Source: Candidatus Scalinduaceae bacterium
Lineage (GTDB): Bacteria > Planctomycetota > Brocadiia > Brocadiales > Scalinduaceae
DNA: 36,704 nt
Direction: 5' to 3'
Assembly (NCBI GenBank): GCA_046759445.1
Contig: JBHICG010000030.1
Coordinates: forward strand, 1-36,704
Positions 3,001-6,000 of this stretch are shown one piece after another. Within the stretch, counting starts at the first letter, position 1. Each line of letters begins with the position of its first letter. Made by a program: the position numbers.

Positions 3001-6000
3001 TGAAATTACAAGATTCAATATAATTATCTAAGGTTTTAATACTCCAAGCGGGTATTAGAAAAGCCTTGCAAGGGAAATTTATTTCTGATACTATCCTTTG
3101 TGAGTTATGCTTTTCTTCCTTTATGATTAGGAGATAATATCATGGTTAAATCATTTGAAGGTAATTTTGTTGGTACTGGTAAGACTTTTGGTATCGTTGT
3201 TAGTCGGTTTAATAGTTTTATTACAAAGAGAATGTTAGAGGGCGCTCAGGATTGTTTAATTAGACATGGTGTAAATGATGGTGATATTGATGTGTTTTGG
3301 GTCCCAGGCTCCTGTGAAATACCAATTACGGCTATGAGACTAGCTAAAGGAGCCAGGTATAATGGTATTATCTGCTTGGGGGCAATAATACGTGGGGAAA
3401 CCCCTCATTTTGATTATGTATCCGGTGAAGCAGCCAGGGGTATTACTGAAGTTGGTCTTACAACAGGTATACCAACAATTTATGGAGTCATTACTACGGA
3501 AACACTGGAACAGGCCATAGATAGGGCTGGCGCAAGAGGCGGGAATAAGGGAGCAGAGGCAGCTCTTACGGTTTTGGAGATGGTGGATTTGTTTGATAAT
3601 ATTAAGGATGTATAAAAGTTCCACTTACTGTAGATTCGCCCTGTTAGGTGTATAATATCTAACAGGGAAACCGCTGAGATCACAGAGATGTTTAGCAAAA
3701 GTATGATAAATTATTTTGGTGAGTTTATTGAACCATCTTTGATTTTAATGTTTGCTTTGCGTGCTCTGCACACTCTGTGGTGAACATTTTTATTGTGGAG
3801 ATTTGTGGATGAGGAAAAGAACACGTTCTCGTGAAATTGCATTACAGGCTCTTTATCAGTTGGAGATACGCGGTGATGAAATTATAAGCGAGATAGATTC
3901 TTTTTGTAGAGAACGCGGTAAGGAACCGGTGGTGAGTGATTTTGCCATCATCTTAGTTAAAGGTTGCATTAAGTTTATGCAGGAAATCGATAAAAAGATA
4001 GTTTCTATATCAGAGAAATGGAATTTGCACAGGATGCCAGTAATAGACAGGATTATTTTAAGAATAGCGTGTTATGAGCTTCTTTATTTGAGTGATATAC
4101 CCCCTAAAGTTTCTATTAATGAGGCAATTGACCTGGCTAAAAAATACAGTACTGAGAAATCTGGTTTGTTCGTAAATGGAGTGCTGGATAAGATGTATTC
4201 ACTTTACGTAAAGAAAGATAAAAGGGTTAAAAAAGGCATCTCTAGTTTGACGGAGGTTAATTTAGAAAAGGAGAGTTACAAAGGAGCTGATTTACACATA
4301 CACACAGAATATTCTGATGGCACTATGTCACCTGAGCAGGTGGTTGAGGAAGCGCTAAAACTCAAGTTGCATACAATTGCAATAACTGATCATGATAGCA
4401 TTGATGCTATTGAAATTGCTCAGGCCATTTGTGTTGAAAAGGGATTGAATATTATTCCTGCAATAGAACTTTCATCATATTATTGTGCTGCAGATATTCA
4501 CATTTTGGGCTACTTTATAGACATAAAGAATAGCACACTATTAGAAAAATTGACTGAGTTGCGTTTTGAAAGGGTGGAGCGAATAAAGAAAATAACTAAG
4601 AAATTGGTTAGTTTGGGTGTTATTGTAGACCCGCAAGAAGTTTATGATGTTGCCGGAAAAGGGGTGCCTGGCCGAATGCACGTTGCTGATGTTTTGTGCA
4701 GAAAAGGCTATTGCAGCAGTATTCAGGAAAGCTTTCAAAGGTATTTGTCAGACAATGGTCCTGCTTTTGTTCCAAAGGTAGCATTGTCATTAGAAAATGC
4801 TATAAAACTTATAAACTCTTCAGATGGTATTTCTGTTCTTTCTCACCCAGGTACTACAAAAAGAGATGAATTAATCCCGAAGATGGTAGAATTTGGACTA
4901 CAAGGAATTGAGGTTTATTCTCCATCACAACTGGCAAATGATATAGAGAGATATATTCGATTGGCAAATGAATATGATCTTGTAATTACGGGTGGTTCAG
5001 ACTGTCATGGTGAGCGAAGACCGGATATCAGGTTGGGTAGTATAACAATAGATAATGACATAGTTGAAAAGATTAAGGAAAGACACGATAATATGATTGG
5101 TATGTTGAGTTGTAATAACTAAGGCAAGGTGAGATTATGGCTTGGTTTTCAAAAAAGGGATCGGGATTGTCTACTCAAGAAGATGTGGAAGACAAATCAT
5201 TATTTCCCTTCCAAATATTGAGAAGAGGTTTAGAGAAGACACGTACAAAAATAACCTCTAGGTTTAAAGATTTATTATCATTCAGAGGGAAGATTGATGA
5301 GAGTATTTTGGAGGAATTAGAAGTTATATTAATCGAATCTGATATGGGTGTAATCCCGGCAACTAAGATTATACAGGATGTAAGAGAAGCCTGGAAATCT
5401 AAGGAAATTGAGGATACATCCGGTGTCTGCGATTTTTTAAAAGATAAGCTTAAACAAAGACTAAAGGGATTGGATGCTTCATTAAAGATTGCGCCTGTTC
5501 CACCAACGGTTATTATGGTTGCTGGCGTTAATGGTGCAGGAAAAACCACTTCAATTGCAAAGCTTGCAAATTTACATATAAAACAGGGCAAGAAAGTGAT
5601 GTTAGCGGCAAGTGATACCTACCGCGCTGCAGCTATGGAACAACTGGATATTTGGAGTAAAAGGATTGGTGCGGATATCGTGAAGCATCAAACAGGCGCT
5701 GATCCTGCGGCGGTTACTTTTGATGCACTTGAAGCTAGTTTAAGTAGAGGAATAGATGTTTTGATCGTTGATACTGCGGGACGTTTGCATACTCATGATA
5801 ATTTAATGAATGAGTTATCAAAAATAAAACGAGTAATTTCAAGAAAAATAGAAAATGCGCCTCATGAAGTTCTACTTGTTTTGGATGCTACTACTGGACA
5901 AAACGCTATTTCACAGGCAAAACTATTCAAGCGAGCGGTTGATATTACAGGGATATTTTTATCAAAACTTGATGGAACCGCTAAGGGTGGTGCCATTTTA

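Follow-up and report, generated by a model that had tools for sequence, protein, structure and literature searches.

A NusB-PHP phosphoesterase fusion in the Brocadiales hints at a physical coupling of rRNA transcription and RNA 5'-end trimming

RNase AM (YciV/TrpH, encoded by rnm) is known from E. coli, V. cholerae, and P. aeruginosa (structures 7ug9 and 9etk). It trims rRNA 5' ends and short RNAs in the 5'->3' direction (PMC7261194 and PMC11528712, both available in part), and in E. coli it carries out 5'-end maturation on all three rRNAs, as described in the available text of PMC7261194. What guides the final rRNA-trimming nucleases to pre-rRNA and away from other transcripts is an open question, and that text says so for RNase AM. 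Cv1693 of Chromobacterium violaceum (2yb1, NF041577), from the same PHP subfamily, is a 3',5'-nucleoside bisphosphate (pAp) phosphatase. According to the accessible part of PMC11528712, the characterised members, Cv1693/2yb1 included, are 5'->3' oligoribonucleases that cleave pAp as well. Here we describe a protein that resembles RNase AM in its PHP fold and insertion lobe (about 26-31% identity) and in its conserved metal ligands and stacking Phe. RNase AM is a stand-alone enzyme of about 290 aa that is not nusB-linked, whereas this PHP domain is joined covalently to NusB.

Canonical NusB (E. coli, T. maritima, and Aquifex; 3d3b, 1tzt, and 3r2c) has about 140 aa and ends after its last helix. 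The protein described here matches it over the full equivalog model and in predicted fold, but it continues with a linker and a 280-aa enzyme. RsmB (Sun, the 16S rRNA m5C967 methyltransferase) provides a precedent for a NusB-like N-terminal domain on an rRNA-acting enzyme. In RsmB, however, that domain is a paralogue beside a separate true NusB and the enzyme part is a methyltransferase, while in the present genome no NusB besides the fused copy was found and the enzyme part is a phosphoesterase. RNase III-RNase AM fusions occur in some deltaproteobacteria (PMC7261194, available text). Compared by description only, they likewise place an RNase AM-type domain on another rRNA-processing factor, but the partner is an endonuclease and not a transcription factor.

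The window (the whole stretch of DNA that was analysed, 36,704 nt from Candidatus Scalinduaceae bacterium) carries the fusion gene between ribH and ftsY (Table 1). A genome-wide survey's note had claimed that a complete NusB and a full-length PHP domain share one ORF, and this was confirmed by the ORF itself and by Pfam, NCBIfam, and PDB matches. An alternative in-frame TTG lies upstream at 3752 and would give 456 aa; because homologues begin at MRKRT, position 3809 is the likely start. Between 2800 and 6700, neither promoter-like sites (13 versus 12.7 expected) nor terminator-like sites (4 versus 1.8 expected) were informative.

Table 1. Features of the ribH-nusB::PHP-ftsY region, with positions in the window.
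Feature	Position	Strand	Basis or remark
ribH (6,7-dimethyl-8-ribityllumazine synthase)	3142..3615	+	ORF; Pfam DMRL_synthase, 184 bits
Perfect 9-bp hairpin (CCCTGTTAG / CTAACAGGG, 11-nt loop)	3639..3667	+	Inside the 193-nt ribH-nusB spacer
nusB::PHP fusion gene	3809..5122	+	Single ORF, 437 aa plus stop
NusB domain, residues 1-135	3809..4213	+	TIGR01951, AF2, Foldseek
Linker, residues 136-158	4214..4282	+	Rich in Lys; of variable sequence and length; disorder predicted
PHP phosphoesterase domain, TrpH/YciV (RNase AM / Cv1693) subfamily, residues 159-437	4283..5119	+	
ftsY (SRP receptor)	5137..6111	+	Pfam SRP54, 253 bits, plus SRP54_N

The N-terminal module scores above the equivalog cut-off of the NCBIfam nusB model (TIGR01951; 135 bits versus 88.35, 1-128 of 131 positions). 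Pfam NusB (PF01029) covers residues 6-130 (E 6.5e-36, 124 bits, 2-132 of 133 model positions), and a PDB sequence search matched NusB 1tzt at 1.4e-24. RsmB models also match this part, with 57 bits. In the AF2 prediction the module is all-helical (helices 3-140, pLDDT about 85-97), and Foldseek assigns the model to the NusB fold (1tzt, TMt 0.84; 3r2c, TMt 0.90). Conserved alignment columns include an N-terminal Arg-rich stretch (R2, R4, and R8) and an invariant Y16. When the entire fusion was modelled together with the S10 encoded in this genome, the complex passed with a score of 0.64, and the best of three controls scored 0.00; 116 of 157 solved complexes reach that mark, as do 2 of 215 mismatched pairs. 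Three runs shared at least 95% of contacts, with a partner pLDDT of 75-77. The modelled interface consists of helix 1 (residues 12-21), residues 77-79, and residues 112-116, and none of the listed contacts falls outside the NusB module. Because NusB-S10 complexes have already been solved, this model is to be read as likeness to solved complexes and not as binding.

Pfam PHP matches residues 161-222 of the ORF (E 1.3e-11). The best NCBIfam phosphatase match is nside_bi_sphtase (NF041577; 172 bits versus a cut-off of 400, 4-262 of 276 model positions), and RNaseRnm (NF047791) gives 158 bits versus 375 (3-260 of 275 positions). Both scores fall below the equivalog cut-offs, as the survey had noted; the domain is therefore filed as a subfamily member and as an equivalog of neither enzyme, and with scores so far under the cut-offs its substrate could differ from those of the known enzymes. 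The survey had posed the choice as RNase or pAp phosphatase. The scores do leave that undecided, but the choice is largely a false one, since the members covered in the available part of PMC11528712 do both. PDB sequence matches of the PHP part were 3e0f (7.5e-34), 9etk (1.7e-31), 7ug9 (2.1e-29), and 2yb1 (7.4e-25). By Foldseek, the predicted fold has the PHP barrel and the subfamily's insertion lobe (9etk, TMt 0.84, rmsd 1.8 A; 3e0f, 0.86; 2yb1, 0.85), with DNA polymerase PHP domains scoring far lower.

Fifteen residues (D161, H163, H165, D170, H195, E220, H231, R255, R258, R289, H291, F309, H346, D398, and H400) are invariant in 37 fused sequences with 34-75% identity to the query, and they align with their counterparts in 2yb1. 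The trinuclear metal site is complete, with H163, H165, D170, H195, E220, H231, H346, D398, and H400 aligned to the 2yb1 ligands. R255, R258, R289, and H291 of the 5'-phosphate pocket and the base-stacking F309 correspond to R99, R102, R134, H136, and F154 of Cv1693. The Cv1693 residues matched, all of them present here, are H7, H9, D14, H39, E64, H75, R99, R102, R134, H136, F154, H191, D248, and H250. The roles given to them are in part ones that we presume. In RNase AM such residues are needed or strictly conserved, F154 being strictly conserved (PMC11528712, available part). Judged by alignment and predicted structure, both modules look functional.

Between the modules, AF2 pLDDT falls below 50 for residues 137-155 (whole model pTM 0.64, mean pLDDT 89), and in the alignment of fused homologues the linker columns are unconserved and contain indels. 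The two domains are separated by 51-72 nt in all but one of the 21 same-order loci; in the exception (L025) the gap measures 207 nt. The linker is thus predicted to be a disordered, flexible tether of about 20 residues. We lean, by a narrow preference, towards reading the protein as a working NusB that carries a tethered RNase AM-type enzyme, which would trim pre-rRNA 5' ends at the antitermination complex. An unconserved, disordered linker for which no fixed interdomain packing is predicted would suit a fusion that is neutral or that serves co-expression only. The PHP part would then be a housekeeping nanoRNase or pAp phosphatase acting on free small cytosolic substrates, joined to NusB when a stop was lost between translationally coupled neighbours, and the tethering would be irrelevant. 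We regard this account as unlikely overall, although it deserves to be taken seriously. It draws on the preference of the characterised relatives for pAp and very short RNA, as described in the accessible part of PMC11528712.

The genome (3.62 Mb, 145 contigs, 97% complete) was searched for other genes with either domain and for enzymes of pAp and RNA decay. The fusion ORF is the sole match to PF01029. NF047791 matches it and one further place with 17.7 bits, and PF02811 (PHP) has five hits: the fusion ORF, a frame of DnaE size (1157 aa), two others of 278 aa and 356 aa, and a weak one of 504 aa. The survey's view that this is the only NusB and the only PHP protein of the TrpH/RNase AM subfamily in the genome is thereby borne out. 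The genome has its own CysQ (TIGR01331; 274 bits versus a cut-off of 228.8), so pAp clearance does not depend on the PHP domain; in this respect too the domain differs from Cv1693. CysQ is the only IMPase-family gene found. An NrnA-like DHH protein is also encoded, and RNase J was not found in the genome. The dedicated CysQ and the NrnA-like protein argue against a housekeeping role on free small substrates. However, most genomes of one family of the order (f3) have no IMPase/CysQ gene, and there the domain may be the pAp phosphatase, which favours the housekeeping account.

SuhB is a phosphatase-fold protein that is associated with Nus factors on rRNA operons; this protein of the inositol-monophosphatase fold is the structural hub around which the rrnTAC, the antitermination complex of E. 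coli rRNA operons, is built (PMC10250234, available part). By analogy, the PHP domain could be mainly a structural hub, with catalysis secondary. The presence of CysQ as the sole IMPase-family gene found in this genome would agree with such a role, but we consider it the least probable of the readings discussed here. Among 31 genomes of the order, at least two IMPase-family genes are present in 15 (including the congener G407), one in 8, and none in 8. Lack of a SuhB-like gene is therefore not a trait of fusion bearers, many Brocadiales having such genes alongside the fusion, and the idea that the PHP domain replaces SuhB was dropped. The invariance of every catalytic residue points to selection for catalytic function. 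In the S10 model the PHP domain is free of contacts, its fold by Foldseek is PHP and not the unrelated IMPase fold, and SuhB itself is unfused and structural in role.

Of 22 same-order (Brocadiales) genomes, 21 encode NusB and PHP in a single ORF, and in the 22nd (G251) the gene is interrupted by a contig end. The five of five Brocadiales genomes reported by the survey thus extend to a wider set, and this retention of the fused state speaks against a fusion without consequence. The ESM Atlas holds two NusB+PHP clusters. The best 150 matches among 1.84 billion representatives include seven fusions, of which the named ones are Jettenia and Brocadiia. In the phylum sample, the fusion is carried only by Brocadiales and one further family (f102). 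Across everything searched, the fused form was found only in Planctomycetota, as the survey had proposed. We found no published description of a NusB-PHP fusion in the literature, where anammox-related papers were judged mainly by title or abstract.

Gene neighbourhoods show that the two genes are associated well beyond the fused form. Within the order, ribH lies upstream of nusB in 19 of 19 loci with at least 1300 nt of upstream sequence, and ftsY lies downstream in 21 of 21. In other Planctomycetota, 64 loci have enough flank; in 26 of these, two of which are fused, a co-oriented nusB lies immediately upstream of PHP. The 60 extra loci were picked from the best-scoring PHP matches, and these fractions describe the sample and not the phylum. 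The same arrangement was found in 8/8 Omnitrophota, 6/6 Verrucomicrobiota, 1/1 Chlamydiota, and 4/4 'Planctomycetia/-ales' loci, with the two genes unfused throughout the first three phyla. The search outside the phylum used a 7-sequence alignment and took the best 80 of at least 594 relatives, a small and non-random sample. Among 59 loci without a PVC label, nusB is upstream in one of the 55 with enough flank, and that one is identical to a Planctomycetota row; the other 58 have no nusB adjacency.

Judging from these sequences, the fusion is derived by stop-loss from an older nusB-PHP pair found in Planctomycetota, Verrucomicrobiota, Chlamydiota, and Omnitrophota. Of the survey's interpretation, the architecture and the intact halves therefore stand, but the fusion is not an isolated invention, as the pair spans the PVC bacteria. 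Unfused in-frame neighbours with a single stop between them occur in some loci (TGA in L027; TAG in L028 and L029). Since only one stop-codon loss is needed between such neighbours, the fusion could be neutral. Against this, the pair is kept over four phyla as the other neighbours change: in the Verrucomicrobiota nusB-PHP-ftsY persists and the flanks are free of ribH (0/4), and the Omnitrophota retain nusB-PHP but have no ftsY there (0/8). Adjacency alone is not specific to nusB, because PHP is still beside ftsY after nusB loss in eight Planctomycetota loci with adequate flanks, and in two loci outside the PVC bacteria (L138 and L170) it is directly followed by ribH, with no nusB.

A concatenated NusB+PHP tree of 63 rows (12 Brocadiales, 2 f102, 4 metagenomic fusions, and 45 adjacent pairs, with redundant Brocadiales left out) places the fused forms in two positions and needs two changes. 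Two positions would count against a neutral event. The AU test, however, does not reject a single clade of all fused forms (p 0.348), which leaves repeated independent fusion unestablished and suits the neutral account. The backbone of a PHP-only FastTree of 175 rows is without resolution.

The frequent company of ribH raises the question of whether the PHP domain is the 'missing' phosphatase of the riboflavin pathway (for 5-amino-6-ribitylamino-uracil 5'-phosphate) that travels with ribH, with nusB as a bystander. This would fit the position of ribH directly upstream of nusB-PHP in all same-order, Omnitrophota, and Chlamydiota loci sampled, as well as the PHP-ribH order of L138 and L170. It is nevertheless highly improbable. 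The Verrucomicrobiota loci without ribH speak against it, and among the PVC-labelled loci sampled, ribH is never beside a PHP gene that has no nusB. The nucleotide pocket of RNase AM and Cv1693 (Arg cluster plus stacking Phe) is invariant, the fusion partner is NusB and not RibH, and no Rfam family, including the FMN riboswitch, was found at gathering score in the whole window.

Members of the same PHP subfamily also occur in other RNA-related contexts. In Bacillota and Chloroflexota the gene comes after rny-ymdB-spoVS, an RNA-decay context. Outside the PVC bacteria, where 20 of 29 upstream ORFs were scanned, spoVS is the upstream neighbour in 11 loci, and 8 loci have RNase Y no more than 3 kb upstream. 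This RNase Y cluster and the RNase III fusions (PMC7261194, available text) are contexts of long-RNA processing, and they weigh against a role confined to free small substrates; an APS kinase gene directly upstream of PHP in one locus (L144) points the other way. Taken as a whole, gene context lends support to the tethering model, which is plausible. The accessible text of PMC7261194 describes E. coli RNase AM as acting late, on assembled particles, and by analogy this is no obvious match for co-transcriptional action.

The assembly has no 16S gene, and boxA was therefore sought in five related genomes. With an assumed consensus and up to 3 mismatches allowed, boxA-like 13-mers were found about 115-123 nt before the 16S start in four of the five and in the 16S-23S spacer of all five, both being raw counts read without a shuffled control. 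Contigs from another study's RNA libraries bridge the NusB-PHP junction; such contigs are no proof of transcription. Runs X3 and X4 contain 30% of sampled words, and several bins of the stretch are uncovered by their contigs, which weighs in neither direction. One X4 contig has a 38-nt skip at 5095-5134, with 23 nt on one side.

As to activity, substrate, and place of action, we infer that the PHP domain is most likely a 5'-phosphate-dependent 5'->3' exo/oligoribonuclease tethered to a NusB-S10-boxA complex. In this mechanism, the N-terminal module would be the cell's working NusB. Together with S10 (NusE) it would bind boxA in the leader and spacer of nascent rRNA and enter the antitermination complex that RNA polymerase carries on rRNA operons. 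The C-terminal module, on its flexible tether of about 20 residues, would be a catalytically intact trinuclear-metal phosphoesterase of the RNase AM/TrpH type. Such enzymes bind a 5'-phosphorylated nucleotide and degrade short or 5'-monophosphorylated RNA nucleotide by nucleotide in the 5'->3' direction, with pAp cleaved too. Loss of the stop codon between adjacent nusB and PHP genes, neighbours across the PVC bacteria, produced the fusion. It fixes a 1:1 stoichiometry and would hold the nuclease a few nanometres at most from pre-rRNA bound at boxA. The tethered nuclease could then trim or clear 5' leader ends made by endonucleases, either while transcription is under way or shortly afterwards.

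A bolder and rather doubtful extension, drawn by analogy, is that NusB-PHP is a bacterial counterpart of eukaryotic Rat1/Xrn2, a 5'->3' exoribonuclease that rides the rRNA transcription complex. Anchored at boxA by way of NusB-S10, it would degrade excised 5' leader and spacer fragments, trim pre-16S and pre-23S 5' ends co-transcriptionally, and free NusB-S10 from boxA for re-use. If this were true, the products of the unfused nusB-PHP pairs of PVC bacteria would assemble non-covalently to do the same work, and Nus-factor recruitment of RNase AM-type enzymes might hold more widely.

Current annotation names such proteins 'NusB' or 'phosphoesterase', and either name conceals the other half. For biochemical and structural studies, the fusion supplies a 1:1 complex ready-made. 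Its presence throughout the order, together with the unfused pair in four related phyla, hints at a physical coupling between the transcription of rRNA and the trimming of RNA 5' ends and provides a concrete, testable hypothesis, that Nus factors may recruit a 5'->3' exonuclease to nascent rRNA.

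The nusB::PHP gene joins two complete domains in one protein. Pfam places NusB on residues 6-130 (E 6.5e-36), and residues 161-222 match the beginning of a PHP domain. The N-terminal half scores above the NCBIfam cut-off for TIGR01951 nusB (135 vs. 88.35 bits), and the C-terminal half matches the models for 3',5'-nucleoside-bisphosphate phosphatase (172 bits, cut-off 400) and RNase RNM (158 bits, cut-off 375) nearly end to end. Among solved structures, the sequences nearest to the C-terminal half are 3e0f, 9etk, 7ug9, and 2yb1, and those nearest to the N-terminal half are NusB chains. 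Starting at an in-frame TTG (3752) would lengthen the protein by 19 residues, yet MRKRT is the N-terminus of all homologues. In the source assembly (145 contigs totalling 3.62 Mb; completeness 97%), the fusion ORF is the sole match to PF01029 (NusB), NF047791 finds only this ORF and one 17.7-bit trace, and PF02811 (PHP) matches five frames, the other four of which have DnaE-like or other sizes. The genome-wide survey's note had described a complete NusB and a full-length PHP domain on one ORF downstream of ribH, with PHP scores below both NCBIfam cut-offs, and had called them the only NusB and the sole enzyme of that PHP subfamily in the genome; its description is correct on every point that could be checked. 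No T-run follows the hairpin upstream of the gene. The 440-aa ORF joins TatC to FecR, an unusual domain arrangement for the core of the Tat translocase.

Features of the fusion gene region
Feature	Position	Strand	Description
440-aa ORF	1612-2934	-	Complete TatC (residues 21-234, 214 bits) and C-terminal FecR domain (residues 313-400, 40 bits)
ribH			Upstream of fusion gene
Hairpin	3639-3667		Perfect 9-bp CCCTGTTAG/CTAACAGGG, 11-nt loop; within the 193 nt separating ribH from the fusion gene
nusB::PHP fusion gene	3809-5122	+	437 codons, single open frame
ftsY			Downstream of fusion gene
PD-(D/E)XK nuclease superfamily (PDDEXK_3) protein	6135-6593	+	152 aa; directly 3' of ftsY

According to PMC11528712, which treats Cv1693 (2yb1) as an RNase AM orthologue, proteins of this family degrade oligoribonucleotides 5'->3' and are also highly active on pAp. 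The two NCBIfam names therefore describe one subfamily. The source genome encodes CysQ (274 bits, above the cut-off of 228.8), so the pAp job is covered there. It also has a weak NrnA-like DHH protein, and RNase J was not found in it. Among the exonuclease families searched, no candidate 5'->3' exoribonuclease other than the PHP domain was found in this genome. Inositol-monophosphatase-family genes are absent from 8 of 31 Brocadiales genomes, mostly small genomes of family f3 (G203, G251, G281, G296, G354, G413, G415, and G403); by the query used, these eight thus lack candidates for both CysQ and SuhB, and the balance between RNase and pAp phosphatase may differ in f3. A SuhB-like structural role for the PHP domain is poorly supported and very improbable; SuhB-like genes occur alongside the fusion in many Brocadiales.

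Predicted structures agree with a two-domain protein. An AlphaFold2 model built from 37 fused homologues (34-75% identity to the query) combines a mean pLDDT of 89.2 with a pTM of only 0.64. Its pLDDT drops below 50 at residues 137-155, and the linker columns of the alignment are without conservation and carry indels. The model suggests two well-defined domains joined by a disordered tether. Foldseek aligns the predicted PHP half with RNase AM of V. cholerae (9etk; TMt 0.84, rmsd 1.8 A) and also with 3e0f, 2yb1, and 7ug9; its matches for the NusB half are the NusB proteins of T. maritima and Aquifex (TMt 0.84-0.90). Residues D161, H163, H165, D170, H195, E220, H231, R255, R258, R289, H291, F309, H346, D398, and H400 are invariant in 37/37 fused sequences; their 2yb1 partners in the HMMER alignment include H7, H9, D14, H39, E64, H75, R99, R102, R134, H136, F154, H191, D248, and H250. 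Diribonuclease activity is lost when active-site residues are replaced by alanine, and F154, which stacks on the base, is strictly conserved (PMC11528712). The NusB half retains an Arg-rich N-terminus, and Y16 is invariant in the same sequences. Modelled as a complex with S10 from the same genome, the whole fusion scored 0.64 (best control 0.00), a mark attained by 116 of 157 solved complexes vs. 2 of 215 mismatched pairs. Contact agreement between runs was at least 95%, partner pLDDT was 75-77, and every listed contact lies in NusB residues 12-21, 77-79, or 112-116. This model resembles solved NusB-S10 complexes, and the appended domain need not block the interface; because such complexes are already solved, it shows likeness rather than binding.

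The fusion is kept across the Brocadiales, as had been claimed. Among 401 Planctomycetota genomes, including 22 Brocadiales, one match spans both domains in 20 of the 22; G296 has a 494-aa frame with both domains and a longer linker, and the G251 locus is interrupted by a contig end. With our own HMMs, both domains are on one ORF in 21/21 testable Brocadiales loci. Elsewhere in this sample, true fusions occur only in G368 and G355 (family f102). Both Pfam domains are present in all of the best 120 clusters (90% identity), with source names including Scalindua, Brocadia, Brocadiaceae/Brocadiales, Hypogeohydataceae, and Planctomycetes/Planctomycetota/Planctomycetia. A search of 1.84 billion representatives (50% identity) gave seven Pfam-checked fusions among its top 150 hits (P0068, P0121-P0126), two of them named (Jettenia and 'Brocadiia'); the rest of these hits have only NusB or only PHP, the latter in proteins of ~270-290 aa. 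This list reaches down to ~198 bits, and very distant fusions with lower scores would fall outside it. The ESM Atlas has two NusB+PHP clusters, both from Planctomycetota.

Unfused relatives point to the origin of the fusion. Gene order is ribH-nusB-PHP-ftsY in G171 and G188 (f41) and G221 (f59), where separate nusB and PHP genes share a frame with a single stop codon between them. Around the best-scoring PHP matches in other Planctomycetota, 60 further loci were examined, and 22 of them have a same-strand nusB directly upstream. A PHP-only alignment against species-representative genomes, taken as the best 80 of at least 594 relatives from many phyla, also gave 22 loci with nusB directly upstream: Scalindua (2/2, fused), Omnitrophota (8/8), Verrucomicrobiota (6/6), Chlamydiota (1/1), records labelled Planctomycetia/Planctomycetales (4/4), and one further record identical to a Planctomycetota row. 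It was upstream in 0/58 others, including Bacillota, Chloroflexota, Gemmatimonadota, and 'delta' groups. Fusions have 45-72 nt between the domains (once 207), a range bracketed by the gaps of unfused pairs (-1 to 173 nt). Given this adjacency, the single in-frame stops, and the bracketing gaps, the fusion is a stop-codon loss within a gene pair present in all four PVC-group phyla sampled. The main rival explanation is that this stop loss was neutral and joined NusB to a housekeeping nanoRNase or pAp phosphatase, which we consider possible though rather unlikely. In a concatenated NusB+PHP tree, Brocadiales group together with four metagenomic fusions (support 93), and the f102 fusions nest among unfused pairs of f59 and f41 in a starred clade. 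By an AU test, monophyly of all fusions is not rejected (p 0.348), so the fusion may have one or two origins.

Gene neighborhoods also bear on function. In Brocadiales, Omnitrophota, Chlamydiota, and Verrucomicrobiota, nusB is found in all loci whatever the state of ribH and ftsY. ribH is upstream in all loci of the first three groups and in none of the four Verrucomicrobiota loci with sufficient flanking sequence; every Brocadiales and Verrucomicrobiota locus has ftsY downstream, against 0/8 in Omnitrophota. As a counter-example, eight Planctomycetota loci with adequate flanks retain PHP-ftsY with nusB elsewhere. PHP lies directly upstream of ftsY, with nusB and ribH elsewhere, in L030, L031, L033, L039-L042, L044, L046, L051, and L078, which span several Planctomycetota families. 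Outside the PVC group, PHP is followed directly by ribH, with no nusB nearby, in L138 (Ignavibacteria) and L170 (Rhodothermales). No other context found favors a riboflavin link, and the idea that the PHP domain is a riboflavin phosphatase is poorly supported and very improbable. In loci without a PVC label (87 immediate same-strand neighbors), SpoVS is the upstream gene in 11, and YmdB and RNase Y lie farther upstream. RNase Y was found in L106, L116, L117, L118, L134, L166, and L175 (20 of 29 listed ORFs scanned), plus L159; these loci and L171 carry the string (recX)-rny-ymdB-spoVS-PHP, with PHP last, in Bacillota, Chloroflexota, and one record labelled Deltaproteobacteria. The rny-ymdB-spoVS cluster concerns RNA decay. 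An APS kinase upstream of PHP in L144 is a pAp-type context. RNase AM-RNase III fusions are mentioned for some deltaproteobacteria in PMC7261194.

The source assembly contains no 16S gene. Five related complete or near-complete genomes were searched for 13-mers with up to three mismatches to a boxA consensus. By this consensus, a boxA-like 13-mer lies ~115-123 nt before the 16S start in 4/5 genomes, and another in the 16S-23S spacer in 5/5; these are candidate NusB targets, in the sense of being consistent with one. In two metatranscriptome runs of another study, 30% of sampled words of 3100-6200 were present. Two contigs bridge the NusB end, linker, and PHP start (X4 record 14, 4052-4286, 1 difference; X3 record 6, 4071-4482, 15 differences), a weak sign of transcription because RNA libraries can contain DNA. 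E. coli RNase AM is reported to trim the final three nucleotides from the 5' ends of 5S, 16S, and 23S precursors (PMC7261194). On balance we favor a working NusB with a tethered, predicted active 5'-phosphate-dependent exo/oligoribonuclease that would act on 5' ends of the leader or precursor in the vicinity of boxA.

The NusB and PHP families are well known, and public annotations show both domains; no paper describing the fusion or the nusB-PHP gene pair was found in the literature searches made. The fusion is a clean natural 'Rosetta stone' tying Nus factors to RNase AM-type enzymes.
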